From Chiloscyllium plagiosum (lineage: Eukaryota): a stretch of DNA of 45,235 bases. Position 1 is the stretch's first letter, and each line of letters begins with the position of its first letter. Below the pieces are notes generated by a model. The model was not told the origin of the DNA, searched no databases, and saw only the letters and a program-made list of their open reading frames with translations. Shown here in pieces: positions 8,378 through 39,942 of the stretch. The translations under genes were made by a program, and so were the position numbers. The DNA is taken from contig NC_057754.1 of assembly GCF_004010195.1 (NCBI RefSeq), positions 9,577,516 through 9,622,750 on the forward strand, read 5' to 3'.

Positions 8378-8577
8378 AAAATAGAAATTGCTGGTAAAAC
8401 TCTGCAGGTCTGGCAGCATCTGTGGAGAGAAATCAAAGTTAACATTTCCAGTTCAGTGACTGTTCAGACTGAAGAACTGGACCAAAAACGTTAACTCTGC
8501 TTTCTTTCCACAGACCTGCTGAGTTTTCACAGCAATTTCTGTTTTTGTTTCTGATTTCCAGCATCCGCAGTTCTTTT
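8378..8577. mobile_element. Fold-back PLE terminal-repeat element (family C) with degenerate hammerhead
   Basis: Inverted arms AGAAATTGCTG...GCAGGTCTG...GTTAAC and GTTAAC...CAGACCTGC...CAGCAATTTCT. Centre TTCAG-A-CTGAA(GA) at 8463-8475. Confidence 0.8.
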
Positions 8578-8719
8578 AGGGTTTTTTTCATGACTTAACC
8601 GCTCGTGAAGTACTCTATCAAGCACCTTCTGGAAGTCCCAATACAATATAGCTACTGATTGATTTGGTGTCACGTGTATCCAAGAATAGTGAAAAGATTT
8701 GTTTATGATCAATACAGGC

Positions 8720-10350
8720 AGATCAGAGTAAGCAAGGAAGTACAAATCAAAAAGACTTAGAGACATACAAGTTCCATTGCACTAGGCAAGATCAACGTTA
8801 GCAAGATCAGCATTAGTTGAGGGTAGAGAGTCCATTCATCAGCCAGGAGGAAGCTGTTCCTGAACCTGCTGGTGCATGTGTTCAGGCTTCGGTATCTTCT
8901 GCCTGACAGAAGAGGTTGTAGGAGATTATTACTGGGGTGCTATGGATCCTTGATTATGTTGGCAGCCTTTCTGCGTCAGTGAGCCGTGTAAACGGAGTCC
9001 ATGGATGGAAGGTTGGCTTCTGTGATGGTCTGGGCTGTGCACATCACCTTGTGTAGTTTCTTATGGTCCGGGGCAGAGTAGTTGCCGTACCAGGCCACTA
9101 TGCACCCGGACCGTATGTTTTTAATGGTGCATCTGTGGAAGTTGTTGAGGGTTCTTATGGACGTGCCAAATTTCCTGAGCTGCCCAACAGGAGCCTTTGT
9201 GCCTTCTTGACCGTTGCATCTATGTGGCAAGTCCAGGACAGGTCCTTGGTTATTGTCTCTCCAAGGTCTTTACCTCTCAACCTCCATTCTGTTGATGTGT
9301 GTGCGGGCATGTTTTCCTCCTTTCTTTCTGAAGTCAATGATCAGTTCTTTAGTTTTGCTGATGTTGAGAGAGCAGTAATTCTCATTGCACTATCTCCCTC
9401 TATTTCCCTTCTGTATTTTGACTTATCATTGTTAGGCACCTGCCCTGTTACAATGGTGTTGTCAGCGAACTCGCACATAGCGTTCGTTCAGAATTTGGCA
9501 ATACAGTCGTGGGTATATAGGGAGTGCTGTAAGGGGCTGAGGTTGCATCCTTGGGGGGGGCTCCAATGTTGTGGAGGAGGTATAGTTACCCATGTTCACT
9601 GATTGCAGTCTGTGGGTCAGAAAGCTGAGGATCAAGTTGCAGAGGGCAGAACCGAGACCAGTCAGAGTTTTGAGATCAGTGGAGGAGATAATGGTGTTGA
9701 AGGCGGATCTCTAGCCAATGAGCAGGTGTTTAACATAGGTGTCCTTGTTGTCCAGGTGTTCCAGGGATGATTGTAGGGAGAGGGATACAGCATCTACTGT
9801 GGACCTGTTACATAAATAAGGAAATTGTAGGGGATCGAGACAGGCTGGGAGACTAGAGTTGATGTGGGCCGTGACCAGCCTCTCGAGATACTTCATGATT
9901 ATTGAGGTCAGAGTCACTGGCCAGTGGTCATTAAGGCATGCTGCATGTGCTTTCTTGGGTACGGAGATGATGGTGGTCTTCTCGAAGCAGGCGGGGACTT
10001 CGGCTTGTAGGAGGGAGGTTGAAGATGTCAGTGAATACCTCTACCAGCTGGTCCACACAGGATCTGAATGCTCGGCTGGGGGGTCCGTCGAGGCTTGTCC
10101 CTTTCCTTGGGTTGATTCCCAGGAAGACCGACCTGATGTCTGGTGACGGAGGGATACTGTGTCCGGTACTGTCGAGGCAGGCATCACCGCGCCGCTGGCA
10201 TTCTGCTGAAACCGAACATAGAAAGCACTGAGCACGTCAGGGAAGGATGTGTATTAGTCTGCTACCTTCCATGCTTCATTTTCTATCCCATACTGTTGTT
10301 TAGGCATTGCCATAGATGCCGGGAGTCTGTTTGGTAGGTATGGGCCTCTA
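8720..10350 (-). mobile_element. Rex1/Babar-type non-LTR retrotransposon, decayed
   Basis: TLTSIIMKYLERLV..HI..SLP..LDPLQF.Y..NRSTVDA...LEHLDNKDTYV; KDLSWTCHIDATVKKAQ; GCIVAWYGN.SA.D.KKL. Confidence 0.85.
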
Positions 10351-10359
10351 CCTTGGTCC

Positions 10360-11525
10360 AGTTCTCCAATCGGAGGTTGAACAATTCATCAGCTTCACCA
10401 ACACATTCCACCCTGACCTTAAATTCATCTGGAGCATCTCAGACACCTCCTTCCCCTTCCTAGACTTCTCCATCTCCATCAACGGTGACCGACTCAACGT
10501 TGACATTTTCTACCGACCCACCGACTCCCACAGTGACCTGGATTATACCTCCTCCCATCCTGACTACTGTAAAAATGCTATCTCGTATTCCCAATTCCTC
10601 CGCCTCCGCCACATCTGCTCCCAGGAGGACCTGTTCCACCACAGAACACACCAAATTGCCTCCTTCTTTAAAGACAGCAATTTCCCCTCCCACGTGGTTG
10701 ATGATGCCCTCCAGCGCATCTCTTCCACTTCCCACACCTCCGCCCTCGAAAACCACCCCTCCAAACGCAACAAGAACAGAACCCCCCGGTCCTCACNNNN
10801 NNNNNNNNNNNNNNNNNNNNNNNNNNNNNNNNNNNNNNNNNNNNNNNNNNNNNNNNNNNNNNNNNNNNNNNNNNNNNNNNNNNNNNNNNNNNNNNNNNNN
10901 NNNNNNNNNNNNNNNNNNNNNNNNNNNNNNNNNNNNNNNNNNNNNNNNNNNNNNNNNNNNNNNNNNNNNNNNNNNNNNNNNNNNNNNNNNNNNNNNNNNN
11001 NNNNNNNNNNNNNNNNNNNNNNNNNNNNNNNNNNNNNNNNNNNNNNNNNNNNNNNNNNNNNNNNNNNNNNNNNNNNNNNNNNNNNNNNNNNNNNNNNNNN
11101 NNNNNNNNNNNNNNNNNNNNNNNNNNNNNNNNNNNNNNNNNNNNNNNNNNNNNNNNNNNNNNNNNNNNNNNNNNNNNNNNNNNNNNNNNNNNNNNNNNNN
11201 NNNNNNNNNNNNNNNNNNNNNNNNNNNNNNNNNNNNNNNNNNNNNNNNNNNNNNNNNNNNNNNNNNNNNNNNNNNNNNNNNNNNNNNNNNNNNNNNNNNN
11301 NNNNNNACAATCCCACTCTTGGCTGCCTTTCCCCCCCCCTCCCAGGCCCACCACCGCCCCCTCCCCATTTATCTCTCTCCACCCCTGAGGCTCCCAGCGT
11401 CATGATGAAGGGCTTTTGCTCGAAATGTCGACTCTCCTGCTCCTTAGGTGCCTCCTAACCTGCTGTGCTTTCCAGCACCACACACTCGACTCTAATCTCC
11501 AGCATCTGCAGTCCTCGCTTTCACC
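10360..11525 (+). mobile_element. Penelope-like element: RT C-terminus, assembly gap, 3' terminal repeat with hammerhead-like motif (family A)
   Basis: FPFLDFSISI...DIFYRPTDSHSDLDYTSSHP..CKNAISYSQFLRLRHICS (PLE RT/thumb). 3' end has ATGATGA AGGGC TTTT GCTC GAAA TGTC (11402-11429) then ...CATCTGCAGTCCTCGCTTTCACC. Confidence 0.88.
10797..11306. other. Assembly gap (510 N)
   Basis: Run of N inside the Penelope element. Confidence 0.99.
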
Positions 11526-12656
11526 TTGGTCCAATACTGCCTCTTGGCATCCCTGATGGCTTTGCAGAGGTCTTATCTGGATTTCCTGTATTAGTCTGGA
11601 TCATTGTACTTGGTTCCCTTTTATTGACTCTGGCTAAAACTCTTGAAAAACTCTAATAAATTAGTCAGACACCATTTCCATTTCATGAAGCCAGGCTGAC
11701 TCTGATTAGATTTATGATTTTCCTGATGTTCAGCTTTTACTCTCTTAATAAATGATTCCAACACTTTGACGACAATAGAGGTTAGGATAATCCTCCTACA
11801 TTTGCCTGCTTTTTCCCTTTCTTGCTTTTGAATAGGAGCGTCACGTTGGGAATTTTCCAGTCCTCTGGTACTTCTCCAATGTCCAAGGATTTTTGGTTCA
11901 ATGCATCCGTTATTCCTAGCTACCACTATTAGGATCCTGGGATGCAAGTTAGGGAATAATTCACCATTAGCCCTATCAGTTTGTCTAATACTACTTCACT
12001 GGTGATTGTGATGGTACTTAATTTCTCCCCATAATCTTGAGCATTAATGGGATATTCAAAGTAGTTTCCATTGTAAAAACATCTGTTTAATTCCTCTGCC
12101 ATTTCTCTGTTCCCCATTGCTTTCTCTACCGATTCAGTTTCTAAGCGATCTTTGACCTTTCTCTTTCTTTTTGTATATTTAAAGTCTTGTCAGTTTTTAT
12201 ATTCCTCGCTAGTTTTCCCTCATAGTTTATTTTCTCACTTTTTATCATCTCAGTCCTCCTTTGCTGGTTTCTGATTTTATCCCAGTTTTCGGGGCTATCA
12301 CTGATGTTTTGCCTCCATATACACTTTTTTACTTTCAATTTGAATATTCTCCTTAATTTCCTTGGTGAGCCATGGTTGGATTCTCCCTCTCTCGGAATCT
12401 TTCCTCTTGTTTTTACCGAGAGTTTTAATGTCAATCACTGCTTGCTTACTGTCATTACGTTACAATTGACTACTGTATCTAACTCATTTCTTCACAATTC
12501 CCTTCAATTAAATTAAGGACAGTTGTCGTTGACCTAAGTTTCTTACTGTCAAACTGAAAATTAAATTCTATCATTTTATGATCGCAACTTTCTTAGAGAT
12601 CTTCTCTCCTAAGGTTGTTTATTAAGCCTGCCTCATTACCTATTACCAGATCCAAG

Positions 12657-12691
12657 ATAAAAATCACACAACACCATATTATAGTCCAACC
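12657..12691 (-). repeat. Short PLE family D terminal fragment
   Basis: TAAAAATCACACAACACCATATTATAGTCCAAC matches 39780-39812. Confidence 0.65.
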
Positions 12692-12827
12692 AAGAGAAAA
12701 GTTAGCCTCTTTCCCAATATCCGTAACTAAAGGGGTGATTTGTCCAGGAGATGACTGATATTTAAGTGGACGGTAAATTAGTATAGGACGGAGATGTGCA
12801 TTGTTATTATGCAATATGGTATTCATT

Positions 12828-13148
12828 GGGCAGCATGGTGGTTCAGTGGTTAGCACAGTTGCCTCACAGCACCAGGGACCTGGATTTGATTCCAGCCTCA
12901 GGTGACTGTCTGTGTGAAGGTTGCACATTCTCCCCGTGTCTGTGTGGGTTTCCTCCGGGTGCTCTGGTTTCCTCCCACAGTCCAAAGATGTGCAGGTCAG
13001 GTGAATTGGCCATGCTAAATTGCCCGTAGTGTTAGGTGCATTAGTCAGAGGGTAATGGGTGTAGATGGGTTACTCTTCAGAGGGTTGCTGTGGATGCGTT
13101 GGGCCGAAGAGCCTGTTTCCACACTGTAGGGAATCTAATTTTATCTAA
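12828..13148 (+). mobile_element. tRNA-derived V-SINE (HE1-like), full length
   Basis: A box TGGTTCAGTGG, B-box-like GATTTGATTCC, V-domain TGCACATTCTCCCCGTGTCTG.GTGGGTTTCCTCCGGGTGCTC.GGTTTCCTCCCACA, CR1-derived 3' end GGGCCGAAGAGCCTGTTTCC. Confidence 0.9.
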
Positions 13149-13659
13149 TATTCAATATGTTATTTGTGGCTCTCTGAACTTAATGTCTAATTATTTCTAG
13201 TTTTTTCTTATGAAGTTAACTCCATTATATATTTCTAGCCATTTGGCACATTTGAATCCATGAGACTTTGTCTAAATCCCTGTGACCCTGCAAGTTTATT
13301 TCTTTCAAGCGCCCATCTAAATGTCAGTTTGAAATTGTTGATTGGCTCTGCTTCCTTGACTCTCCCAGTGGTGATTTTCATCCCATGAGCACATCCAGCT
13401 GAAATAAAAATATTCCTGAGATCCTTTTTTTCCAAATCAGTGAATCTACATTTATGTGAAAGTTGATATTTAGGGTCAGCGATTTTTTTCCTGTGACCGG
13501 GACATGAAGCAGCGAGCGTGGGTTAGCATGAATCATTGCCTTCAGGGGAATGGGGAGAGTGTCTACAGTGGAGTGGGATGGAGATGTTCAGCTTGTGGGT
13601 TATGAAATGTTCTACTAAAAAGTAGAATTGTTCAGAATTTCTATCCTGTACTGACAGTG

Positions 13660-13684
13660 ATTTTTTTGTAAATGTGTTTTACAG
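13660..13684 (+). promoter_or_regulatory. 3' splice acceptor of ZNF gene 1 terminal exon
   Basis: CTGACAGTGATTTTTTTGTAAATGTGTTTTACAG|; similar to the acceptors at 21481 and 28530. Confidence 0.7.
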
Positions 13685-13974
13685 AATGTGAAATGGAGAG
13701 GATTGGAAATCTCAAAGATCTGACACAGTCAATCAATTAATTGAGTCTCGAAACTCATTGGCGTGGAATCGAGTGAAATGTCGATCAGTTCTGTTTGCTG
13801 CCAAAGGTTTTGAACATCAGACAGAATGGAAAGGCACCAAGGCATATGCATGAGGGTGAACTGACAGTGGAAAGAGAGTAGAAACATTTCTTACTGTTCA
13901 TAACGGGGAGAGACTGCACATGTGTTCTACCTCATGGACAAGGCTCTAACTGGTCATTCAACCTGAAAGGGCAC

Positions 13975-14748
13975 ATGGAGAACCTCAATATGGAGCGGCC
14001 ATGGAAATGTGCAGACTGTGGGAAAGGATTCAGATCCCCATCTAAGCTGGAGATTCATTGTCGCAGCCACACTGGGGAGAGACCATTCACCTGCTCCATG
14101 TGTGGCAAGGGCTTCACTGATTCATCCAACCTGCAGAAACATCAGCGACTTCACACAGGGGAGAGGCCGTTCAACTGCTCCGAGTGTGGAAAGGAATTCA
14201 CTTTGCTATCCAAGCTGCTGACCCACCAGCGAGTTCACACCCGGGAGAAACCTTTCACTTGCTCGGAGTGTGGGAGAGGATTCACTCAGTCATCCAACCT
14301 GCTGAAACACCAACAGGTCCATGCTGGGGACAAACCGTTCCCTTGCTCTGAGTGTGGGAAGGCGTTCACGCAGTTATCTCACCTGCTGACACACCAGAGG
14401 GTTCACACTCGGGAGAGACCGTTCATTTGTTCAGAGTGCAGGAAGGGATTCACTCAGTCATCCCACCTGCTGACCCACCAGCGGGTTCACACCAGGGAGA
14501 GGCCGTTCACTTGCTCTGTGTGCGGGAAGGGATTCAGTGACTCATCCAATCTGCAGAAACACCAGCGAGTTCACACCGGGGAGAGGCCATTTGTCTGCTT
14601 GGAGTGTGGGAAGGGATTCACTCAGTTATCCCACTTGCAGACGCATCAGCGGGTTCACACCAAACAGAGACCATTTACCTGCTCTGTGTGTAGGCAGAGG
14701 TTCACTGATTCCTCCAACCTGGAGATACACCAGCGAGATCACAAGTAG
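13975..14748 (+). CDS. Tandem C2H2 zinc-finger protein, 9 fingers, 257 aa, no effector domain seen
   Basis: Open ORF with nine CxxC-x12-HxxxH units and TGERPF-type linkers; ATG context CACATGG; acceptor upstream and AATAAA downstream. Confidence 0.93.
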
Positions 14749-15007
14749 TTACAGGGGTCAGATTCTGCTTTCATTGCTGCTGTTAATTACATCCAGTGCT
14801 GAACGACAGTGGGTGAAGTCGGGCCTCTGGTTGGAGGGTGTCTTTCTGCTGGACTTGCTGGGCTGTCTGCTTGGTTTCCAGTAGCCTGATGCTGTTTGAG
14901 CTTGGACGGCACCTTTCCATTGAACTGATCTGCAAAAGCCAGACAATGTAGGTCTGTTTTATCCTGGATAGTTCATGGTGTTTTCCTACCACTACAGGTA
15001 TATCGAA

Positions 15008-15013
15008 AATAAA
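15008..15013 (+). terminator. Candidate poly(A) signal of ZNF gene 1
   Basis: AATAAA 260 nt after the stop codon. Confidence 0.55.
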
Positions 15014-15189
15014 TACATTTGCATCTGCTTCATAGAGTCTATAGCACAGGACCAAGCCAATTGGCTGAATTGGTCCATGCGAGTCCCCACCCTCCCCTTA
15101 TCATACTCCCCAAAAAATACCCCAACAACATACCCTTCTAATACTTTCTCCTTTATGAATGTATCCATTTCCCTGTAAAAGAATCCATG

Positions 15190-15468
15190 TGAGTTTTGAG
15201 AAGATTTGTAGCTCAGCTTGAGGTTTGGGACGTAGGTTTGCTCACTGAGTTGGAAGGTTTGTTTTCCAACGTTTTGTCACCATACTGGGTAACACCAGTG
15301 AGCCTCCGGTGAAGTGCTGGTATTTAACATGAGAAAACCCAAACACGTGACTAGAAAGCTGGCCACTAACACCAGTGCTTCACCGGAGGCTCACTGATGA
15401 TGTTACCTAGTATGGTGACGAAACGTCTGAAACTGAACCTTCCAGCTCAGCGAACAAACTTACATCCC
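15190..15468. mobile_element. Fold-back PLE element (family B) with 9-bp TSD
   Basis: Inverted arms ~15228-15321 and 15371-15467. GAATCCATG duplicated at 15181-15189 and 15469-15477. Confidence 0.88.
15385..15443 (+). ncRNA. Minimal type I hammerhead ribozyme motif, core intact
   Basis: TCA-CTGATGA(15394-15400)-T-GTTACC/TAGTAT/GGTGAC-GAAA-CGTC(15427)-TGA. Stem I TCA/TGA can extend via GGAGG/CCTTCC. Confidence 0.75.
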
Positions 15469-15930
15469 GAATCCATGCTGTTCAACTCAAGCACTCATGG
15501 TAGCAAGTGCCATATTCTCACCACTTGCTAGGCTAAGAGTTTTTTTTTTAAATGAAATCTTATTGGTTTATTGAAGCCTTTCATCATCATGAAATGTTCC
15601 ATCTGGTCACCCTTCACTCCTCTCTCTGTTAGAGCAAAGCCTCTCCTGAGGGTGAAATGCTCTCGGTTCTGATATTCTGTTGAATCTTCTCCAATGCCTC
15701 TATTTCCTTTCTCTAAATGGAGATCATGGATGGGGACAGTGGAGTTTACTTGTGGTTTGGAATTAATTGAACAGAACCTCCCCCATTTCTGAACTTCTCG
15801 CCCTGTGAAAAGGAGACCCACGTGGGGTTGTGCAAGGCTCATGGAACGTTGGTCCCTTGTTTCAAGGGGGTCGAGTTTTTTTTTGTTTTTCTTAATTTAT
15901 TCATGCAACATGGGATTTGCTGGCTGGGGT

Positions 15931-16160
15931 AGAAAACGAGGACTGCAGACGCTGGAGATCAGAGTCGAGAAGGTGTTGCTGGAAAAAAACAGCATCCCGG
16001 AAGCAGGAAAATTGACGTTTCGGGCCTAAGCCCTTCATCAGGAATGAGGCTGGCTGGTCGGCCAAAGGCGCTGAGAGATATATGGGAGGGGATGGGGCTT
16101 GAGGGAAGGTAACTGAGAATGCGATAGGGGGAGGAAGGTGAGGGAAAAAATGATAAGTGG
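15931..16160 (-). mobile_element. Penelope 3' terminal repeat (family A) with intact hammerhead core
   Basis: Minus strand 16041-16014: CTGATGA AGGGC TTAG GCCC GAAA CGTC. Homologous to 11330-11525. Confidence 0.85.
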
Positions 16161-16452
16161 CTGGCCATCATTTATTGTGTCCCTTCAGTTGCCCTTGAAG
16201 GTGATGGTGAGCTGTCTTCTTTAGCCATTGTTGTCCACGTGGTGTAGGTTGACCAAGAGAGGGAATTCCAGGATTTTGACCCAGAAACAATGAAGGAATG
16301 GTGATATGTTTCAAGTCAGGATGGGGAGTGGCTAGAAGAGGAATTTGCAGGTGGTTGTTTTCCCATGTATCTGATGCCCTGTTCTTTCAGGTGGAAATGT
16401 GTGTGGGTTTGGAAGGTGCTATCGAAGAATCTTGGTAAATTTTTGCAGTGCA

Positions 16453-17924: not shown

Positions 17925-18613
17925 TGTTGGGGATGGCAGTAAATTGAGCAGTGGGTGACTTGCTCCTAGCGGTCCAATTTAGAAATACCGCGTCACACAA
18001 GCCTTGAGTATTGACAGGTTTATTTGAGATTCTGGATCAGTGGTGCTGGAAGAGCACAGCAATTCAGGCAGCATCCGAGGACAGGCAAAATCGACGTTTT
18101 GGGCAAAAGCCCTTCCCGAAATGTCGATTTTGCCTGTCCTCGGATGCTGCCTGAATTGCTGTGCTCTTCCAGCACCACTGATCCAGAATCTGGTTTCCAG
18201 CATCTGCAGTCATTGTTTTTACCAGGTTTATTTGAGAGTTCATGGGGAAAGACGAGGCGACCGAATAGCCGCAAGTCACTCCGAGATACAAAGAATCGCG
18301 TAATTATATAGGTTACAATCGTTTAGCAATTAGCAAACTGTTAATTGCAGGATAATGAGCAAGATGGCATCTTGCCCAGTCATTAGCTTCAGTCATGTAA
18401 TGTCTGGACAGTGTCAGTTAGTAGCTGACAAGCAGATGTTAGTAGACAATAGGTCCATGCAAAGGTATCAGTACAGCGGCAAGGCCAACCATCTTAGCTG
18501 GGCATGAGAAACACAAGATTTTAGCAGTCAGGCATGAAGATGGGATTCAAAATGGTTTCCAGGCTCTTAATATGTGACAAAATGGCTGCCATGAATCTCT
18601 CAATTCTCCCACA
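17925..18613 (-). mobile_element. Solo LTR (ERV/Gypsy-type)
   Basis: TGTTGGGGA...TCTCCCACA termini, (A)CAG on both sides, interrupts a CR1. On the minus strand, TATATAA (~18304-18310) precedes AATAAA. Confidence 0.65.
18027..18222. mobile_element. Young fold-back PLE element (family A variant): perfect 69-bp inverted arms, 15-bp TSD
   Basis: 18027-18095 is the exact reverse complement of 18123-18191. CAGGTTTATTTGAGA occurs at 18015-18029 and 18223-18237. Confidence 0.93.
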
Positions 18614-19110: not shown

Positions 19111-19114
19111 TAAA

Positions 19115-19716
19115 CAATGGGGGGGATTATCTCATTCAAGATTCTTTTCTGTCAAAAAAGTGGACCTCAACTTAAAACATAGACAGAATCAAAGCAGGAC
19201 CTCACACCTAAAATGCATTCTCTAACCTGAGGTACCACCTATTGTACATTGATAAAACCTTTAATTATCGGTGGACAAAGACTTGAAAGTAATTTGCATT
19301 TTAATCAAGCAGGAGGTTGGAGGAACACAGCAAGCTAGGCAGCATCAGGAGATGGAGAAGTTGACATTTCTTCAGGAATGCTCCCCCTATCCCCACCTCC
19401 TGAAGAAGGATTATACCCAAAATGTCGACTTCTCCACCTCCTGATGCTGCCTGGCTTGCTGTGTTCCTCCAGCTCCCTGCTTGTCTACTTTGGATTCCAG
19501 CATCTTCTGTTTTTTTAAAACTTTAATTTTGCATTTTAATCAGCAGTCTGCTTCCTAACGATTAAAGGATTCAACTTTTAAAGTTGTTAACTTTTTGCTT
19601 ATCAATATTGTGTCTTATGTTTCCCTATCATACCATACCTGAGGACGGAGCAGAGCTCCGAAAGCTTGCAATTTCAAATAAACCCGTTGGACTATAACCT
19701 GGTGTTGTTGGTTTTT
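19115..19716 (+). mobile_element. Penelope family D 3' region with hammerhead motif (5' boundary uncertain)
   Basis: CTGAGGA C GGAGC AGA GCTCC GAAA GCTT (19639-19667) followed by CAAATAAACCCGTTGGACTATAACCTGGTGTTGT, which matches 39753-39942. Confidence 0.7.
19308..19527. mobile_element. Fold-back PLE element with 15-bp TSD nested in the family D element
   Basis: Arms 19308-19370 and 19420-19482. TTTGCATTTTAATCA at 19293-19307 and 19528-19542. Degenerate core CTGAAGA...ACCC-AAAA-TGTC at 19400-19426. Confidence 0.85.
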
Positions 19717-19717
19717 G

Positions 19718-20397: not shown

Positions 20398-20409
20398 AGT
20401 AAACCTAGA

Positions 20410-21579: not shown

Positions 21580-22420
21580 ATGGAATCATACAGCACGTTA
21601 GAGGCCCTTCAGCCCATCGAGTCCTGCCGACCTATCTACACTAATCCCACTTTCCAGCACTTGGCCTATGCCCTTAACTGTTATTGCATTTTCAAGTACT
21701 TGTGTATTTTTGTAAAAAGTTTGTAAGGTTTCCCATCCTAACTAGGAGATAGTGAGGACTGGAGATGCTGGAGAAGTCAGAATCGATAAAAGTGTGGTGC
21801 TGGAAAAATCACAAATGTCGATTGTTGCTCCTCAGTTACTTCCATCTTAACTACCCTCCCAGGCAATACGTTCAAAATTCCCAGCATATTCACTGAGTTC
21901 CCCCTCAAACCCTCTCCAGACCTCCTGCCATTCACCTTTAACATTAACATTATGCTATTGACTCTTCAACTAAGGAGAATAGCTGCTTTCAATGTATTCT
22001 GTCTGTGGCTCTCATCTTATACACCTTAATCAGGTTCCCACCCCGCCCCAATCTTCTTTGCTTCAAAGAAAGCTACCCAGGTTTATCTAGCCTCTCTTCA
22101 TTGCAGAAGTGCTCCATCCCAGGTCATGTCTTGGTGAATCTGAATCTCCAGTACACTCACATCCTCCCTGTAATGAGGAGACAAGAACTGCACACAGTAC
22201 TCCAGCTATGGCCTAACATAATCTCCCTGCTGTGATAATCTATGCTGTGCTGTCCTGTATGCTGCCGTAACTACCCTGTTAGCCTGAACTACCACCCTCC
22301 TTTTGAGCTTTCTGGTGTCCTGCTATTCAGTGACTCCTTTATCTTGACACTTCTTCCAAAGTGCATCACCTCACTGTTTCAGCGACAAACTACATCTATC
22401 AGTGATTTGCCATTATGAAC
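21580..22420 (-). mobile_element. Old CR1 3' fragment
   Basis: GAATCATACAGCAC..AGAGGCCCTTCAGCCCATCGAGTC...AGAACTGCACACAGTACTCCAGCT.TGGCCTAAC. Confidence 0.7.
21745..21836. mobile_element. Short family A PLE terminus with partial inversion and degenerate TSD
   Basis: AGTGAGGACTGGAGATGCTGGAGA...GTGGTGCTGGAAAA then AAATGTCGATT..TGCTCCTC. Flanks TTCCCATCCTAACTA and TTCCATCTTAACTA. Confidence 0.7.
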
Positions 22421-23178: not shown

Positions 23179-23337
23179 GGAGAAAGTGAGGACTGCAAAT
23201 GCTGGAGATCAGAGCCGAGAGCGTAGTGCTGGAAAAACACAGCAGGTCAGACAGCATCCGAGGAGCAGGAGGATCGACATTTCGGGCATAAGCGGGCTGA
23301 TGCCCAAAACGTTCAATTCTCCTCCTTCTCAGATGCG
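23179..23337. mobile_element. Family A PLE terminus with short inversion and 13-bp TSD
   Basis: TATTGTAGAACCA at 23166-23178 and 23338-23350. Junction TTTCGGGCATAAGC|GGGCTGATGCCCAAAACG. Confidence 0.88.
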
Positions 23338-28321: not shown

Positions 28322-28451
28322 AGGAAAAAGTGAGGACTGCAGATGCTGGAGATCAGAGCTTAAAAATGTGTTGCTGGAAAAGCGCAGCAGGTCAGGCAGC
28401 ATCAAAGGAGCAGGAGAATCGACATTTCGGGCATAAGAAGGGCATAAGCCT
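28322..28451 (-). mobile_element. Family A PLE terminus with 14-bp TSD, ending in hammerhead stem II
   Basis: GGGTTCATTCAGCT at 28308-28321 and 28452-28465. The insert ends TTTCGGGCATAAG-AAGGGCATAAGCCT. Confidence 0.88.
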
Positions 28452-28570
28452 GGGTTCATTCAGCTCCAGTTCACAGCCTCGGTGAGTTATTTGTTGCTCT
28501 GTTTTCTCCTGTTTTAAATCAATTTTACAGGAAAAGATTTAAAGTGGGAGGATTCAAAGCGCATTCTCTG

Positions 28571-29734
28571 ATGGAGCGGCTTGCCTCATCAGGACCTGAA
28601 TGTCATTGGCCTTTGGATATGGAAAGCAGTGAAGAGAAACCATGGAAATGTGGAGATTGTGAGAAGGGCTTTGATTACCCATCTAAACTGGAAACACATC
28701 GACGCAGTCACACGGGGGAGAGGCCATTCACCTGCTCGGAATGCAGGAAGGGATTCCGTGATTCCTCCTCCTTGCAGAAACACCGGCGTGTTCACACCGG
28801 AGAGAGGCCATTCGCCTGCTCCAAATGTGGGAAGGGATTCACTCAGCTTGCCCACCTGCTGAAGCATCAACGTGTTCACACCGATCAGAGACCTTTTCAA
28901 TGCCTGGAATGTGGGAAGTGCTTCAAACATTCTGGTGACCTGATGTCCCACCAACGGGTGCACACTGATGAGCGGCCATTCAGGTGCTCCGAGTGTGGGA
29001 CTGGATTCAGACAATCATCCGATCTCACTGTACACCAGCGGGTTCACACTGGAGAGAGACCATTCACCTGCCCTGTGTGTGGGAAAGGATTCATGACTTC
29101 ATCCGACCTACTGAGACACCAGCGGGTCCACACCGGGGAGAGACCATTCACCTGCTCCGAATGTGGGAAGGGGTTCACTCAGTCGTCCAACCTTCAGTCG
29201 CACCAGCAAGTTCACACTGATGAGAAACTGTTCAGGTGCTCTCACTGCGGGTCTGGCTTCACAGGACTGTCTCAACTCCGTGTACACCAGCGAGTGCACA
29301 CCAGGGAGAGGCCGTTCACCTGCCCTCAGTGTGGGAAAGGATTCACCCAGTCATGTAACCTGCTGAGACACCAGCGCGTTCACAACGGGGAGAGACCGTT
29401 CACTTGCACAGAGTGTGGGAAAGGATTCACCCAGTCTTCCCACCTGCTGATACACCAACGTGTTCACACGGAGGAGAGGCCATTCAGGTGCTCGCACTGT
29501 GCTGCTGGCTTCAGGCGATCATCGCAACTCATCGAACACCAGTATATTCACACTGGGGAGAAGCCATTCACCTGCTCTGTGTGTGGGAAGGGATTCACTC
29601 GGTCATCCCATCTGCTGACACACTTGCAAATTCACAAGCAACTCCCCATGTTGGATTTCATTGTTAATCCATTCCGAACTGAACTGTGTTCATTGGAGAC
29701 TGTTTCGGCTAATAAACTGCAACCCAGTCATTGA
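28571..29734 (+). CDS. Tandem C2H2 zinc-finger protein, 12 fingers (387 aa from ATG 28571; alternative ATG 28619)
   Basis: Open ORF with twelve CxxC-x12-HxxxH units; acceptor TTTTACAG| at 28530; no KRAB, SCAN or BTB seen. Confidence 0.92.
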
Positions 29735-30249: not shown

Positions 30250-32316
30250 ACATGAGACTTTGAAGAAGTAATGAAGAGGATTGATGAGGGCAGAGCGGTG
30301 CACATGATCTATATGGACTTCAGTAAAGTGTTCGACAAGGTTCCCCATGGGAGACTGGTTAACAGGGTTAGATCTCATGGAATACAGGGAGAACTAGCCA
30401 TTTGGATACAGAACTGGCTCAAAGGTAGAAGACAGAGGGTCGTGGTGGAGGTTTGCTTTTCAGACTGGAGCCCTATGACCAGTGGAGTGCCACAAGGATT
30501 GGTGCTGGGTCCACTACTTTTCATCATTTATATAAATGATTTGGATGGGAACATAGAAGGTATAATTAGTAAGTTTGCAGATGGCACTAAAATTGAAGGT
30601 GTTGTGGACAGTGGGTTACCTCAGATTACAATGGGATCTTGACCAGATGGGCCAAAGGGCTGAGAAATGGCAAATGGAGTTTAATTTAGATAAATGTGAG
30701 TGCTGCATTTTGGAAAAGCAAATTAGAGCAGGACTTATACACTTAATGGTAAGGTCCTAGGGAGTGTTGCTGAACAAAAAGTGCAGGTTTATAGCTCCTT
30801 GAAAGTGGAAAAGCAAATTAGAGCAGGACTTATACACTTAATGGTAAGATCCTAGGGAGTGTTGCTGAACAAAGAGACCTTAGAGTGCGGTTCAAAGCTC
30901 CTTGAAAGTGGATTCGCAGGTAGATAGGATAGTGCTGAAGGCGTTTGGTCTGCTTTCCTTTATTGGTCAGAGTATTGAGTACAGGATTTGGGAGACCATG
31001 TTGCGGCTGTACAGAAAATTGGTTAGGCCACTTTTGGAATATTGCGTGGAATTCTGGTCTCCTTCCTATCAGAAAGATGTTGTGAAACTTGAAAGGATTC
31101 AGAAAAGATTTACAAGGATGTTGCTAGGATTGGAGAATTTAGCTATAGGGAGAGGCTGAACAGGCTGGGGCTGTTTTCCCTGGAGCATTGGAGGCTGAGG
31201 GGTGACCTTTTAGAAGGGAGAACTAGCCATTTGGATACAGAACTGGCTCAAAGGTAGAAGACAGAGGGTCGTGGTGGAGGTTTGCTTTTCAGACTGGAGC
31301 CCTATGACCAGTGGAGTGCCACAAGGATTGGTGCTGGGTCCACTACTTATCATCATTTATGTAAAAGATTTGGATGTGAACATAGGGGGTATAGTTAGTA
31401 AGTTTGCAGATGGCACTAAAATTGAAGCTGTTGTGGACAGTGGGTTACCTTAGATTACAATGGGATCTTGATCAGATGGGCCAAAGGGCTGAGAAATGGC
31501 AAATGGAGTTTAATTTAGATAAATGTGAGTGCTGCATTTTGGAAAAGCAAATTAGAGCAGGACTTATACACTTAATGGTAAGGTCCTAGGGAGTGTTGCT
31601 GAACAAAGAGACCTTAGAGTGCAGTTCAAAGCTCCTTGAAAGTGGAGTCGCAGGTAGATAGGATAGTGAAGAAGGTGTTTGGTATGCTTTCCTTTATTGG
31701 TCAGAGTATTGAGTACAGGGTTTGGGAGACCATGTTGCGGCTGTACAGAACATTGGTTAGGCCACTTTTGGAATATTGCGTGGAATTCTGGTCTCCTTCC
31801 TATTGGAAAGATGTTGTGAAACTTGAAAGGATTCAGAAAAGATTTACACGGATGTTGCTAGGATTGGAGAATTTGAGCTATAGGGAGAGGCTGAACAGGC
31901 TGGGGCTGTTTTCCCTGGAGCATTGGAGGCTGAGGGGTGACCTTTTAGAGGTTTATAAAATCATGACAGGCATGGATAGGGTAAATAGACGAGGTATTTT
32001 CCCTGGAGTGGGGGAGTCCAGAACTAGAGGGAATAGGTTTAGGGTGAGAGGGGAAAGATTTAAAAGGGTTCCTAAGGGGCTACATTTTCACACAGAAGGT
32101 GGTATGTGTATAGAATGAGCTGCCAGAGGACGTGGTGGAGGCTGGTACAATTACAGCATTTAAAAGACATCTGGATGGGTATATGAATAGGAAGGGTTTA
32201 GAGTGATATGCTCCAAGTGCTGGCAAATGGGACTCTATTAGGTTGGGATATCTGGTCAGTATGGACGAGTTGGTCCGAAGGGTTTGTTTCTATGCTGTAC
32301 ATCTCTATAACTCTGT
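30250..32316 (+). mobile_element. CR1 LINE with internal tandem duplications
   Basis: RT motifs [29 protein letters not shown] occur with 30386-31214 repeated at 31215-31949. Confidence 0.92.
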
Positions 32317-34900: not shown

Positions 34901-34929
34901 AGCTCCCCAATATCCACTACAGATGCTCA

Positions 34930-35032
34930 GTAGCAGTAGTGTGTACTATCTACAAGATGCACTGCAGAAATTCACCAAAGATCCTCAGACAGCACCTTCC
35001 AATCCCACGACCACTTCCACCTAAGGACAAAG
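34930..35032 (+). mobile_element. LINE 3' UTR fragment (family of 15905-17665)
   Basis: TACTATCTACAAGATGCACTGCAGAAATTCACCAAAGATCCTCAGACAGCACCTTCC is the reverse complement of 16410-16452/17195-17215. Confidence 0.7.
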
Positions 35033-35044
35033 GGACTCTTTATG

Positions 35045-35528
35045 GTGTAGGTTTGCTCGCTGAGCTGTAGGTTTGATATCCAGACCTTTCATTACCTGAC
35101 TAGGTAACATCATCAGTGGCAACCTCCAAGTGAAGTGAACCTGTTGACTCCTGCTTTCTATTTATATGTTTGTCCTGGATGGGGTTCCTGGGGTTTGTGG
35201 TGATGTCATTTCCTGTTCGTTTTCTGAGGGGTTGATAGATGGCATCTAGATCTATGTGTTTGTTTATGGCGTTGTGATTGGAGTGCCAGGCCTCTAGGAA
35301 TTCTCTGGCATGTCTTTGCTTAACCTGTCCCAGGATAGATATGTTGTCCCAGTCGAAATGGTGGGGTTTTTTTCCCCCGTGTGTAGGACTACGAGGGAGA
35401 GAGGGTCGTGTCTTCTTGTGACTACCTGGTGTTCGTGTATCCTGGTGGCTAACTTTCTTTCCGTTTGTCCTACATAGTGTTTGTGGCAGTCCTTGCGTGG
35501 AATTTTGTAGACGGGACTCTTGTTGTTT
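35045..35528 (-). mobile_element. Penelope element family B: GIY-YIG endonuclease plus terminal repeat with hammerhead
   Basis: VYKIPRKDCHKHYVGQTERKLATRIHEH...HHFDWDNISILGQ...REFLEAWHS...INKH. Minus 35116-35083: CTGATGA TGTTACC TAGTCA GGTAAT GAAA GGTC. Confidence 0.9.
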
Positions 35529-35559
35529 CCCTCACCACCTGCTGCAGACTCAGTCTAGC

Positions 35560-36300
35560 AGCCATGTCCTTTAGGATCCCACCAACTCGATCCCTGGTGC
35601 TGCCCACCAGAGTACATTTTGCACCTTTGCCACCTGTTGGTCAGCATGGAGGAGTAGTGATTCATCAGCCAAGAGGGGATGGTATATGGTAATCAGTAGG
35701 TGGTTTCCTTTCCCATGTTTAACTTCAAGTAATGAGACTTTGTGGGGTTCAGAGTGAATGTTGAGGAATCCCAGAACAACTGTCTCCCAACTAGGTACCA
35801 CTGTGCCATCATCTCTGCTGGGTTTGTCCTACTGGTGGGCCTGGGATGGTGATGATGGTGTCTGTAAAGTATGATTGTGAACATGACTATTTCAGGCAGT
35901 TGCTTGACTCGTCTGTGAAACAGCCTCCCAATTTTGGCACTCTCCCTCAGATATTAATAAGGAGAGCTTTGCAGGGTCAACATGGCAATTTTTGCCATTG
36001 TTGTTTCTGGTGCCTGGATCAATGATAGGTGGTCCATCCGGTTTCGGTTCTTCATTGAAACCTATAGCAAGTAAGACAACTGAGGGACTTGCATTTCAGA
36101 AGGCAATTGAGTCAACCACATTGCTGTGGCTCTGCACTCACGTATAGACCAGACTAGATGAGGATGATAGATTTCCTTCCCTGAATGGCATTAATGAGCC
36201 AAAAGGATCTTTCGGGACAATTGTCAATGGTTTCATAGACATTCATAGATTCTTAATTCCTGATCTCTTTCATTGAATTCAAATTTCACTATCTGCCATG
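35560..36300 (-). mobile_element. LINE APE-endonuclease / 5' region remnant
   Basis: EPHKVSLLEVKHGKGNHLLITIYHP..ADESLLLH...QNVLW. Confidence 0.7.
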
Positions 36301-36989
36301 CATTACAACACAGGGTAAACCTTCCTACTTAATTTAAAACCAGCAGCGCAGAAAAGATTTATCCCGTGCAGTAATCTAAAAATCGAGTGGCCAGGAATTA
36401 TTTAAAGTAAAACTTAATAACTTTATTTCTTAAAGTGTAACAGGGAATAATTAACTAACCACTACTTGCAATTTCTTTTCTAACCTATCTGTTACCTTCC
36501 CTTCTATAATACTAGTCCGATAAAACTCCCAATTAAAATTTACAAAACAACACTTCTTATCTCAAAGCCAGGCAGCTGTAGATTCTTGTCTTTGGATCTT
36601 CCTGTGTCTTCTTTTCTCCTTGTTAGGAATTTCTGCATCATAAGTTACTGATCAAAAAAGTACGTTTTCAAGCAGTCTGTTTACATGCTGGGCCGTTACA
36701 GTTCTCCCCTCAACTGTTCAATTTTCCCCGGTCTTATACTCCAGAGCATCGGATTGTGTCATTGGCTTTTAAGATGCCAATATACTCAACTTGATTGGAG
36801 TTTGTTATGTTTTGGGTGTAATTTAAACTGATTGGCCGAATTCAAATTTGTTTTTGTCTCCAAGCAACAAACTAATTGAGTTGTTCGACCCACTGTTACA
36901 TTGTTACCATTTTTTAGTACACTCGGTGCTGGGTCAGGTAGTTCTACTGCTTTTAACTCTCTTAAAGGTACACCCACATCTTCATAACG
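36301..36989 (-). mobile_element. Solo LTR (probably Gmr1-like Gypsy)
   Basis: Termini CATTACAACA...TTCATAACG (imperfect inverted), CATG on both sides (36297-36300 and 36990-36993), minus-strand AATAAA at 36422-36427, homology to 5976-6165. Confidence 0.65.
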
Positions 36990-37020
36990 CATGACAAGAT
37001 CATTCACTGGGGTTTCTCAT

Positions 37021-37069
37021 TGGATGCTGCCTGACCTGCTGCGCTTTTCCAGCAACACATTTTCAGCTC
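37021..37069 (+). repeat. Tiny family A PLE fragment
   Basis: GGATGCTGCCTGACCTGCTGCGCTTTTCCAGCAACACATTTT is the reverse complement of 28364-28403; TTTCTCA on both flanks. Confidence 0.75.
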
Positions 37070-37109
37070 TTTCTCAATTAATAGTTGAACAATGATAGCA
37101 CTACGCCAG

Positions 37110-37400
37110 TGTCTTCCCAGTCAATTTGTGCTGGAGAGAGGCCGTTCATCTGCTCCATTTAGGGAGAGGGATTCACTGAGCTACCCATCCTCATAACACA
37201 CGGCAAATTCACACTATCCCTCCTGTAGGAAGCCGGTAGTGTTTTCTTTTGACCCTAAAGCACAGCGGTGAGTTCTGGGTGTGGAAGGTGAATCAGTAAG
37301 TCAGCCTTTCTCTCACACGTGTACACACCGGGGAGAAGCCATTCACTCAGTTATTTCACCTAATGATAAAGCAGCGAGACCATAAGTCTCTGACGTGATT
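37110..37400 (+). pseudogene. Degenerate C2H2 zinc-finger gene remnant
   Basis: GERPFICSI*GEGFTELPILITHGKFT and [23 protein letters not shown]. Confidence 0.75.
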
Positions 37401-39752
37401 CAGTTCTGTTTATGTTCAGGATTGATAGCCTGATAATATAGCGCTTTGATTTTTCCGCTTCATTCAAGAACTCTCAACAGGTTATAGTTTACGGTAAAAT
37501 TATGAACTTTGACTCCAGTCCTAAATTGATCTTTGAAAAAAAATGTACAATTCATTGATTTGAAAGGTTTCACTAAATAAAATTAAATGAGAAATTAATT
37601 CTGTCTGATACTTGTCACCGATTTCCCATTTGCCCGAGTGTACACACAGTGTGCATCATGAAATTAACTTATCAAGGAATGTGAAGCAGAATTGGTATTG
37701 GTGAAGTTTGGAAGTCGTCGAGTTGAATCATTTCTGACCCAGCAACAGCAACATGAAGTAGAGATGAAACCCACAACAAAGACAACCAACTCGCTGGAGG
37801 TGACGTTTTTCATTGAAATGAAAAGTAAGGGGTGACCTGATGCACAACATCAGCAAGAATAACCTGAAAATAGCTGAGACAGTTGCGCAAATAAAGGAGC
37901 CTGTCAAGAAATATCAGCTGTCTGTGACAATGGAAATCTGTGCTCTGACGGTGCCTCCCGAGAGTGCCCTCGGACTCTGTTGGGAGTGCTGGCTGGTCTG
38001 TTGTATACCAGCTCCCTGGTTTTGACACTGGGCTTATGTAGTGAAATGTTGTTTGATGAAAAGCACAGGAGGCAGATGCTTCAGTGGCAAAAGAAACTCT
38101 GATTAAAACAAGCAAAAGTGAAAATATGTACAATATGAAAGAAAATGAATATTTCAAAAAAAAAACCCAATGTTCAAGTCAAGTGAGACTTATCTGATGC
38201 CTAACTAGCACCCCAGTTTAAAATTACAAAGAGCTGTTAATCACTGGGTGATATGGGAAAGGAAAGAGAGATCGACAAAATACTAATCCTGGGGTCCTAT
38301 CTTGCTTCCCTTCCCCTGGGATGCCCTGCACCATCGGCCACAAAGCCTACCCTTCCTACACCATCTGAGCTGGGACAGAGGGTTTCGATGTCCTTATGCT
38401 TACCCCCCTGAAGTAGCTTCTGTTGGCTTGGACGGTGGTGGATGTCACTGGCACTGCCCCAGTTGGTATCTCTGCTCTCTGGTTACTTCTTGGAGGTTTG
38501 TGGATAAGAAAATCATTTGCTCTCTTTTCCTGAGTCTGTGACTCACGGCGACTGGCTGTGTCTGATTCTCTGGACTCTGGCCAAACCTCTCACTGAATCC
38601 AACCCTCCGATCTCTAAGGAGTTATTGCCCAGTTATACTGACTGTCGGTTCCCTGATCTCGAAATCTGGGTTTGATGAGTGAGCTGTTGTTCCTCCTCTG
38701 AGGGCTGAATGATTCTCCTGATTATTAGAGAGGTGTGAATGGTTCTCCAATAAAAATGTTTACGATTGTTTTGGATGTCTATCTTTCTCTTGGATGGACG
38801 CAGGTTAAAGTTTTACTGTTAAGTGCAAGGCCTTCACATTCAAAGACAAACAGGTTTGTATGTGGTACAATGACGTGGAATGTTCAGTATCTCTGTGTCT
38901 GAGTAAAGTGATTACAAGTTGAATGGGTTTGTGTTTTTATGGGTCCCAGCATGTCTCAGTGGTTTGCTCTGCAGGCTGGTGTTTCATTATGTTTAGCTGA
39001 GGTGTTGTGGGGGGGGTCTTCCTTACTCTTGACAAGCTAAACCCTTGTTCCAGACAGCTGGCTTGCATATTGCCTGCTCTGTCTCAGCCATAGAGCTCCG
39101 TGAGTCTTCGTTCAAATGTGAATTCCGCAAACTCTTGTCCCAAGTTCAGAGGGTTTTAGTCCAGGGTATCTGATGGGGATTTCAGCCTTACAACACCAAA
39201 GTTCCCAGATGCGGTTGGGAGGTGGTAAATTCTTCACTGACTGAAATAAACAGCAGTCTCGCTGGATTAAGCATAACTTTGAGCGATACCACCATTTCAG
39301 AAACATCTTCTTGTCTCAGTTTGATTATCTCCAATGACTCCTGTCATGGTTAAGTTGGACAAGGAACACTGACAGTTGAAAAAGCCATTAGTTGCCTACT
39401 AAGTAGAAAGAGCACCAGCAACAAGGGACTTGCCCTAAACTGCTGACGCATGGAAACCCCTAGCTACTACCACAGCTTCATGTTCTCTTCTGGGAAGTCA
39501 GATCCCCCATTGTATTAGCCACAAAGATTTACATAAAACAAGGTGCCTGTGGGGATTGCAATAGCTGCAAGGGCATTTCACTCAGCATCATGGGAAAAAT
39601 CTTCATTCAGGTCATGATTAACTGGCTCCATCCACTTGCACAGTGAGTGTTGCCAAGAAGCACAGATCCTGTGCTAGTAGATCAACATTGGACAGGATCC
39701 CCTCCAGTTGGCAGCTAGAATAAAAGAAGCAGGATATACTTTTGTCGATCTC

Positions 39753-39942
39753 GATTTGGAGGAGCTGGGGTGGACAAAGTTAAAATTCACACAACACCAG
39801 GTTATAGTCCGACAGGTTTATTTGGAAGTGCTAACTTTTGGAACGCTGCTCCTTCATCAGGTGGTGAAAGCAGTGCTTCGAAAGCCTGTGCCTCCAAATA
39901 AACCTTTCGGATTGTAACCCTGGTGTTGTGTGATTTTTAACA
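39753..39942. mobile_element. Fold-back PLE element (family D) with 11-bp TSD
   Basis: Arms GTTAAAATTCACACAACACCAGG... and ...CCTGGTGTTGTGTGATTTTTAAC. TTGTCGATCTC (39742-39752) and TTGTAGATCTC (39943-39953). Minus core CTGATGA AGGAGC AGC GTTCC AAAA at 39860-39836. Confidence 0.85.

Follow-up and report, generated by a model that had tools for sequence, protein, structure and literature searches.

We analysed a 45,235-nt stretch of the Chiloscyllium plagiosum genome (NC_057754.1 of assembly GCF_004010195.1, positions 9,577,516 to 9,622,750; hereafter the window). It holds 3' end-pieces of Penelope-like retroelements (PLEs) with a minimal hammerhead motif, of which a window scan found 17 insertions: eight with an inverted 5' arm and nine non-palindromic copies. 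Four sequence families are seen (A, B, C and E), with B cross-matching A. Positions within the elements are counted from the C of the CUGAnGA core (+1); in family A, stem II is +9..+20 and the cut site follows +28. Boundaries were called by hand and the sample is small (n=17), a weak match at 37986-38033 (E 0.027) and a reverse transcriptase (RT) fragment at 45131-45235 that continues past the window edge being excluded. The inverted, head-to-head insertions, with their target-site duplications (TSDs), are:

8378..8580, family B: junction 8468/8469; long arm on + strand from +1, lacking 5 nt of the stem II 5' strand; short arm on - strand from -1; 35-nt tail; TSD looked for, none found
15190..15468, family C: junction ~15327; long arm on - strand from about -27, short arm on + strand from about -65; 37-nt tail; 9-nt TSD 15181-15189/15469-15477
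18030..18223, family A: junction 18115; short arm on - strand to +6, long arm on + strand from +18; arms 97% alike; 35-nt tail; 14-17-nt TSD
19308..19525, A-variant: junction ~19382; long arm on + strand from about -17; short arm on - strand from about -5, lacking stem II between two GAA; 15-nt TSD 19293-19307/19528-19542
21745..21841, family A: short arm from +22, long arm on - strand from about +63; 12-nt TSD (1 mismatch)
23179..23337, family A: junction 23293/23294; long arm on - strand from +11, 44-nt short arm on + strand from +9; 13-nt TSD 23166-23178/23338-23350
28322..28451, family A: long arm on - strand from +12; inverted part from +6, then a loop flip (junction 28437); 14-nt TSD 28308-28321/28452-28465
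39753..39942, family E: junction ~39866; long arm on - strand from -6, short arm on + strand from about +11; 26-nt tail; 11-nt TSD (1 mismatch)

The arms of 21745-21841 and 28322-28451 do not overlap, and both were left out of the arm-to-arm tail lengths. Sizes range from 97 to 279 nt, for which "standard-sized", the earlier note's word for the palindromes, is a loose term. The non-palindromic copies are:

40007..40103, + strand, family B single copy: tail-less; 5' end about -2; 11-nt TSD (1 mismatch)
19634..19716, + strand, family E single copy: tail-less; 5' end about -2 to -6; TSD looked for, none found
4277..4403, - strand, family C single copy: tailed; 5' end about -12 to -16
42483..42931, - strand, family A long copy: into the endonuclease C-terminus (about -330); core at 42594
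10361..11522, + strand, family A long copy: spans an N gap and reaches the RT thumb region; 11-nt TSD 10350-10360/11523-11533, called by eye
15928..16157, - strand, family A copy: 5' end about -116; 7-nt TSD
35041..35512, - strand, family C-related copy: tail-less; to a GIY-YIG-like frame (about -396); 9-nt TSD
37017..37070, + strand, family A short copy: tail-less; starts about +41; 9-nt TSD (1 mismatch)
12663..12690, - strand, family E short copy: tail-less; starts about +52; 11-nt TSD (1 mismatch)

Four of these nine extend 116 to about 1,040 nt upstream and two begin downstream of the ribozyme. Five end at the tail-less boundary and four are tailed, and therefore each of the two ends primes alone. 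An earlier description had overlooked the insertion at 21745-21841, all nine non-palindromic copies and a short inversion at 42909-42932.

Element identity and the hammerhead motif

Upstream of the repeat, the piece 10367-10786 shares 80% identity over 140 aa with a Chiloscyllium punctatum RT protein (P0001) that scores above cut-off for RVT_1; on its own this window piece gave no Pfam match. The segment 35378-35515 matches GIY-YIG below cut-off (E 0.023), and 42828-42917 aligns with the C-terminal end of P0003 (E 2e-7), a protein that itself scores 21.7 bits for GIY-YIG, where the cut-off is 22.6. Judged by eye, homolog P0003 carries a cysteine-rich RT-EN linker (the corresponding window region is the N gap) and the protein closest to family A has such a linker of Neptune-like type; a Zn-finger-like linker in this place marks the Neptune clade. 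The eight inverted insertions combine an inverted 5'-truncated copy, a one-sided tail (26-44 nt in the five large ones) and, in seven of the eight, a TSD, as in endonuclease-positive PLEs; no full-length pLTR-ORF-pLTR unit in partial tandem lies in the window. Pfam searches with three window translations returned nothing relevant, and repeat translations did not match the N-termini of nine homologs, leaving a tail-ORF overlap without support.

The best copies of all four families show the features of a minimal hammerhead (CUGAnGA and GAAA boxes, extra base, stem II, palindromic stem III). Many copies are decayed, and self-cleavage, which in this class proceeds as a dimer, is predicted from the motif; an Rfam search gave no hammerhead match, and co-folding of decayed copies did not yield a catalytic dimer. 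An Rfam match to mir-2007 (18060-18157) is the palindrome itself, far under the gathering score. MITEs and fold-back DNA transposons have symmetric terminal inverted repeats, fixed ends and a fixed TSD length; here arms differ by the tail, centres and sizes vary and TSDs span 9-17 nt, and we rejected this class. We also rejected non-LTR retrozymes, which are head-to-tail tandem units with a hammerhead in each (bioRxiv 10.64898/2026.07.22.740005); there are no such tandem units among the 17 copies. Family pattern scans found 0 loci in viral contigs and 0 in metagenome contigs, and a prokaryote scan gave one match, in a bacterial MAG contig, regarded as chance.

Breakpoints in the window and in public sequencing runs

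The long-arm 5' end falls at -6..+28, a 34-nt ribozyme window, in 7 of the 17 insertions, where geometric truncation predicts 1.8-3.2 and uniform truncation 1.2-3.3 (P 0.00005-0.027 over both models; 0.001-0.03 for geometric models alone). Among the 16 breakpoints of the eight inverted insertions, 12 lie at -6..+28 and 5 in stem II. The clustering of 5' breakpoints at the hammerhead is thus real, and the stall mechanism proposed for it is not supported. This comparison with uniform and geometric truncation, suggested in the earlier note, upheld its observation within the window, as did the recurrence of the pattern across four families. At each of the seven places where that note had put a junction we found one at or adjoining the position given. 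Its claim that three of them lie inside stem II held less well: the junctions are present, but at 18104-18114 (a spacer made of loop II, the stem II 5' strand and two core A's) stem II contains just one of the two breakpoints, and 28437-28451 is a mere 14-nt scrap of switched stem II sequence and no palindrome. All eight junctions are distinct and seven of the eight insertions have TSDs of their own (9-17 nt), and therefore the junctions were not inherited from a single master palindrome; this rules out the common master per family that the note had named as a threat to its reading.

We mapped public runs of the same species label for one family (A; reference 42480-42779, core at 42594). The loose-end rows, of which 24 of 1,208 are listed (not strictly ranked by count), show single-copy 5' ends. 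Of the 11 listed rows on the 5' side, nine are at 42597-42602 (-3..-8), and ends pile up at -3..-5 (42597-42599), with 233-472 contigs per row: 233/468/472 at 42597/42598/42599 in X11 and, at 42598/42599, 405/389 in X5 and 352/259 in X9, 42597 being absent from the rows listed in both. Their flanks are long and unrelated (agreement 0.30-0.34, median 122-255 nt), those at 42598 being A/T-rich with agreement of just 0.30-0.31; true 3' ends (42482) look similar (492, 417 and 197 contigs; agreement 0.35-0.36). Neither stem II nor the cut site holds an end among the same 24 of 1,208 rows. Raw-read depth on both strands in X21, an RNA run, was 632, 639, 590, 464, 90 and 27 across 42560-42619: it holds at the cut site, declines by 8% across stem II and drops at the 5' edge. 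The boundary at -3..-5 is, for RT, the far edge of the ribozyme, and it lies on an initiator-like motif. YYANWYY is the initiator motif, and -4 is the A of a match to it (background rate 1-2% per base) in two of four scanned family A-type copies and in the family E single copy; families B and C lack it at that position, as do the family E copy at 39866 and the other two family A-type copies.

Part of this signal comes from subfamilies, which leave the reference at -5/-6: X11 has a G-rich loose consensus at 42599, and at 42598 the loose consensus of X21 represents a related upstream sequence (agreement 0.46). The peak at -3..-5 is therefore inflated. Depth has a trough at 42620-42700 and a second peak at 42720-42749, a segment that keeps 20-56% of the ribozyme depth; we rejected the profile as a direct truncation curve, since mismatches peculiar to the reference (42579, 42584) shape it, as does divergence among subfamilies. 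The first loose letter past 42598 is an extra sense-strand G in all three contig sets. In full-length L1 insertions cap copying leaves an extra G (PMC11702581, accessible text), but the G seen here is a single letter of the consensus, from runs of a single species of which two share a sample, and it may be a subfamily's own base instead of a cap mark. The table of positions where many molecules begin or end was empty; one joint among 15 of 131 listed is on opposite strands, fold-back joints being below resolution. A single-cell poly(A) run has no bearing on the element's own expression.

Explanations for the clustering

The breakpoints likely lie at the hammerhead because the element RNA begins there, and not because a folded ribozyme blocks copying. 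We hold it reasonably probable that this RNA starts about 4 bases before the core, that RT runs off its end, and that the cDNAs are joined head to head. As published for other PLEs, the terminal repeat would hold an internal promoter, from which a capped RNA would start at about -4 on the initiator-like sequence. The element protein would cut both target strands, and RT would begin inside the RNA at either end of the 26-44-nt tail, 80-125 nt from the RNA start (both steps modelled on the accessible part of PMC11167929). A single stub would come from one cDNA; two, one per target end, would produce an insertion whose long arm has the tail and whose short arm lacks it. Little microhomology would then be used to join the free ends, and 0-25 nt would be lost, either during joining or afterwards, shifting the junction from -4 to positions within the core and stem II. 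There are indeed copies that end 116-1,040 nt upstream; they may stem from priming in the 3' repeat of the full transcript. The ribozyme would mark the spot because it lies close to the 5' end of the RNA, and stem II, as a hairpin, would perhaps contribute occasional slips.

In all five large palindromes the short arm ends 26-44 nt inside the long arm and, where there is a TSD, within 0-1 nt of it; microhomology at primary junctions is 0-1 nt where readable. The short arm extends further 5' in six of eight insertions (two by 1-2 nt only, one a 7-nt scrap), which one self-primed cDNA would not yield directly; a simple snap-back fits two of the eight, plus the 42909-42932 inversion. Against a general start at -4, family C ends at -12..-65. 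The Penelope start site of D. virilis also lies within the pLTR (PMC2377424), but helix I follows it only after 46 nt and an intron of 75 nt (PMC4209133 and PMC2377424, as far as accessible), and a -4 start is therefore not general. More tentatively, and leaning slightly against it ourselves, we suggest that shark PLEs may mainly copy the 80-125 nt at the head of their own capped mRNA, primed once from each end of the target break, the palindrome being two cDNAs that meet at the cap site.

The earlier note had RT stall or switch template at the folded hammerhead, with stem II giving inverted microhomology. This is distinctly unlikely, even though the breakpoint counts in stem II and at -6..+28 agree with it, the best 24-nt hairpin window includes stem II in five of nine folded copies, the switch at 28444 uses 4 nt of stem II, and stem II is skipped or cut in three to four arms (deletion or flip in one arm at 8469, 19370 and 28444 among the eight inverted insertions, with a possible fourth at 39867). 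An RT moving 3' to 5' should stop at the 3' foot of the fold (+21..+33), but the listed species-wide ends lie beyond it, at -3..-5 with the whole motif copied and 0 in stem II among the 24 of 1,208 rows listed; the predicted junction (GAAA complement, stem II once, GAAA) is at none of the eight primary junctions and has 0 occurrences in the window with up to 2 substitutions allowed; the hairpin windows are weak (-3 to -9 kcal/mol in decayed copies), others equalling or exceeding stem II in four of nine; and the 7-8-nt inversion at the 5' end of 42483..42931 (42909-42932), about 330 nt upstream of the ribozyme, counts against fold-driven inversion. A model in which two RTs meet at the paired stem III of a dimer was rejected because 15 of the 16 breakpoints are 5' of stem III. 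A role of the ribozyme fold in insertion structure is not supported by these data; stem II retains a secondary one, through lesions in one arm. If both arms instead reached about -4 as a near-perfect palindrome, later central genomic deletions aided by stem II could have shifted the junction into the ribozyme, altering the joining step of the run-off reading and letting a single snap-back cDNA explain the polarity. Long palindromes undergo central deletion, although our literature search for this found no paper; single copies end at -2..-6, yet the 5'-most point is +6 to +22 in four of eight inverted insertions, and stem II lesions gather at palindrome centres. We still think it unlikely: the youngest pair (18030-18223) already has an 11-nt spacer, and the fixed tail-less end of the short arm is left unexplained.

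The boundary might also arise from alignment, if subfamilies share a conserved ribozyme and matches stop at its 5' edge. The depth trough and second peak and the subfamily-like loose ends at 42599 and in X21 would suit this, but TSDs fix the true ends of seven of eight inverted and several single copies, and the long A/T-rich flanks at 42598 barely agree, which makes it very unlikely. A splice acceptor or some other site of processing where helix I begins, the place at which an intron ends in D. virilis (PMC4209133, accessible text), is highly improbable as the source of the boundary: an AG at -10/-9 stands behind a pyrimidine tract in three family A copies and 87 RNA reads depart from the reference exactly there (42602), but the contig peak is at -3..-5, not -8, and with a spliced template every copy should carry the same first exon, whereas loose flanks agree only at 0.30. 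Least probable of all is a 5' end set by self-cleavage (+29) or by a short non-autonomous master copy per family. Hammerheads have been proposed to process PLE RNA (accessible text of PMC4209133), yet 0 window copies start at +29, depth is not lost there, no listed loose-end row ends there, and PAc uses uncleaved RNA (PMC11167929, in part); for family A, self-cleavage as the source is largely refuted. Against a master stands the difference among all eight junctions, and a master single stub from -4, if there is one, would still begin at its transcript start.

Comparison with known systems

These data do not amount to a new element. How PLEs build inverted ends is still debated, and in vitro work on them ends at first-strand synthesis, with later steps beyond it; a sharp 5' boundary where the ribozyme begins, two fixed 3' ends and junctions new to each insertion offer a cheap genomic test of the cycle. 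If the more tentative suggestion of double priming on the head of the capped mRNA is true, tens of thousands of stub contigs would record in vivo where transcripts start, how the cap is copied and how priming proceeds from both ends, and would decide whether head-to-head units require an antisense template. A literature search that covered main texts and few subscription journals (Fig. S2 of PMC11167929 may bear on it) found no mapping of PLE 5' breakpoints against the hammerhead.

The comparisons that follow draw on the accessible portions of the papers cited. Poseidon from Anolis carolinensis (PAc; PMC11167929) cuts and extends both target strands, with two start sites bounding the tail; our insertions would resemble it in two internal RT starts that bound the tail about 110 nt from the ribozyme, in the cutting of both strands and in an uncleaved RNA template, and differ in that in vivo 5' ends and inverted junctions are mapped here. 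Like the type I minimal hammerheads of metazoan PLEs (PMC4209133), the motifs have the core boxes, an extra base before stem II and a palindromic stem III, and are mostly single motifs from truncated elements with some opposite-strand pairs; unlike that work, ours concerns shark families and breakpoints, and knows the ribozyme from sequence alone. As in L1 twin priming (PMC11702581), a second RT would be primed on the other target end and full-length 5' ends may bear an extra G, but L1 inverts an upstream part of the RNA, whereas here the same stretch is duplicated. R2 snap-back (PMC11371274) is favoured after full-length cDNA; there the primed arm reaches furthest 5', which holds for only two of our eight insertions.

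The closest likeness is to the head-to-head unit already published for endonuclease-positive PLEs: a pLTR with an adjacent inverted 5'-truncated copy, a one-sided 30-40-bp tail and a TSD (PMC3846280, PMC8557442). Ours share the arm shortened by a 26-44-nt tail, the 9-17-nt TSD, the palindromic junctions, and RT and GIY-YIG-like frames upstream of long copies; unlike that unit, most are ORF-less stubs of 28-280 nt, with the junction mapped relative to the ribozyme. PMC3846280 attributes head-to-head units to self-priming with an antisense template; the polarity and tail geometry of our insertions favour two sense-templated cDNAs instead.

Penelope-like insertions in the window

The window (GC content 44%) carries CR1-like repeats and two arrays of C2H2 zinc fingers, and is interrupted by a single N gap of 510 nt. 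It is shark-type DNA, since its RT fragment at 10367-10786 has its closest named homologs in Chiloscyllium punctatum (9 protein matches among 76 candidates, best 81%). Upstream of the long mini-element copies lie RT or GIY-YIG-like frames, and the mini-elements are the 3' ends of Penelope-like elements (PLEs). Other features of the window are:

10361-11522: one Penelope-like copy that encloses the N gap and has an 11-nt target-site duplication (TSD)
45131-45235: RT fragment of the same type, 89% to the homologous protein P0001 across 35 aa, cut by the window end
30386-31514: two CR1-like stretches, 829 nt apart and 97% alike (second offset 734 nt), explained by either recent duplication in place or misassembly
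13915-14735 and 28640-29628: C2H2 zinc-finger exons built of 84-nt repeats, the latter with a likely splice acceptor near 28530, ~80 nt downstream of insertion 28322-28451
6640-6760: CpG-rich, promoter-like stretch containing the palindrome GCGCATGCGC, which we take to be NRF1-like
42550-42552, 15991 and 21812: three family A copies that lack, or begin at, one common 12-nt segment flanked by two TGCTG words, either a subfamily or a recurrent slip

Profile searches of the window, seeded from its own four families (A, B, C and E) and omitting a weak match at 37986-38033 and the RT fragment running off the window, gave 17 insertions: eight with an inverted 5' arm and nine without, one of the latter carrying just an inversion of 7-8 nt. 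Seven of the eight inverted insertions are flanked by TSDs (9-17 nt); around the eighth, 8378-8580, none was found. Counting the C of the CUGAnGA core as +1 (family A stem II +9 to +20, cut site after +28), the long (tailed) and short (inverted, tail-less) arms start at +1/-1, -27/-65, +18/+6, -17/-5, +63/+22, +11/+9, +12/+6 and -6/about +11, with a margin of a few bases on the upstream limits for the A variant and for families B and E, whose available reference is short. The nine single copies begin near -2, -2, -12, +41, +52, -116, -329, -396 and -1040. The junctions of the inverted insertions are all distinct, and descent of the palindromes from one master copy per family, which the earlier note held would refute it, does not apply.

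Breakpoints relative to the ribozyme

With boundaries called by hand, 7 of 17 long-arm ends fall inside -6 to +28 (7/18 if the RT fragment at 45131-45235 is counted as far upstream). Geometric truncation (means 50-250 nt, 28-nt floor) predicts 1.8-3.2 ends there (P 0.001-0.027), and uniform models 1.2-3.3 (P 0.00005-0.024). The excess at the ribozyme is modest but real, and to this extent the clustering of junctions at the hammerhead claimed by the earlier note stands.

For a species-wide comparison we used the long family A copy 42480-42779 as reference, at 80% likeness, against contig sets X11 and X5 (one sample) and X9, and the raw single-cell RNA run X21. Matching records numbered 28,790, 30,556, 21,080 and 1,012, respectively, of which 7,480, 6,439, 4,246 and 966 fitted only partly. 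Among the 24 of 1,208 loose-end rows listed (not strictly the largest), 11 belong to the 5' side of the element: nine at 42597-42602 (-3 to -8), one at 42547, bordering a 12-nt deletion in the reference, and one at the far-upstream site 42766. The listed contig rows at -3 to -5 hold 233-472 records each, with long flanks unrelated to one another (agreement 0.30-0.34), the same character as the true 3' ends listed (184-492 records, agreement 0.35-0.42). None of these 24 rows falls on stem II (42575-42586) or the cut site (42566). Read depth in X21 stays level over the cut site, declines by 8% along stem II and then by about 80% at the 5' edge. Subfamilies diverging from the reference at -5/-6 add to the end peak, and the segment 130-150 nt upstream holds 20-56% of depth, so many copies are longer. 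Of 131 joints 15 were listed, one of them opposite-strand; fold-back joints are not separable in these data, and the direct test of palindrome centres is therefore the eight window cases.

At 42602, 87 X21 reads depart from the reference just past an AG behind a pyrimidine tract and share a common upstream sequence (agreement 0.75), possibly a host transcript's splice acceptor or a single expressed locus truncated there.

Stalling, snap-back or two cDNAs

RT travels along RNA from 3' to 5', and a fold would halt it at its 3' foot. The listed family A ends sit on the far side of the fold, so RT has copied the entire motif; this speaks against the stall at the folded hammerhead that had been proposed. 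Nor does stem II appear to supply inverted microhomology: the junction form so predicted occurs 0 times in the window, allowing up to 2 substitutions, and readable primary junctions show 0-1 nt. Stem II is not without effect: three inverted insertions carry damage to it in a single arm (deleted between two GAA at 19369-19375, half lost at 8469-8480, flipped at 28437-28451), lesions that may be polymerase slips during insertion or later palindrome-centre deletions. Snap-back of a single cDNA, for which R2 is a precedent (PMC11371274), fits two of the eight inverted insertions and the small inversion at 42909-42932. There a copy broken ~330 nt upstream of the ribozyme carries at its end, beside the TSD, an inverted repeat of 7-8 nt around a loop of 8 nt, a snap-back-like junction remote from any hammerhead.

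The inverted insertions fit better as two cDNAs, one primed from each target end, that would both run to the 5' end of the RNA and then be joined with some loss of sequence. We draw this reading from several observations that fit together: Poseidon of Anolis carolinensis begins reverse transcription internally at two sites flanking the tail, and extends both target strands with uncleaved RNA as template (PMC11167929); in the five large palindromes the short arm stops 26-44 nt inside the long arm; 5/9 single copies end at the inner boundary and 4/9 at the outer; and the short arm extends further 5' than the long arm in 6/8 inverted insertions. Most likely, then, the junction zone coincides with the ribozyme because the transcript begins there, not because the ribozyme is a roadblock. 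Position -4 is the A of a match to YYANWYY, presumably an initiator-like motif, in two of four copies of the family A type and in the single copy from family E (background 1-2% per base); a motif scan of the window copies found no such match in families B and C. The first loose letter past -4 is an extra sense-strand G in X11, X5 and X9 (one consensus letter). The extra G at full-length L1 ends is attributed to cap copying in PMC11702581, and ours could be alike, yet could also be a subfamily's own base.

Relation to published systems

PMC2377424 and PMC8557442 place PLE promoters and transcript starts in the pLTR (the element's terminal repeat), and in D. virilis an intron lies between transcript start and helix I (PMC4209133). 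Our literature search, made in main article texts, listed no publication locating PLE 5' breakpoints at the ribozyme edge. Tandem retrozymes, as described in bioRxiv 10.64898/2026.07.22.740005, were rejected for the mini-elements. The standard PLE unit, as described in PMC3846280 and PMC8557442, has the same inverted arm, tail and TSD as the insertions here, and minimal hammerheads in pLTRs, opposite-strand pairs included, are already described in PMC4209133. The junction pattern of the mini-elements is a refinement of a known system.
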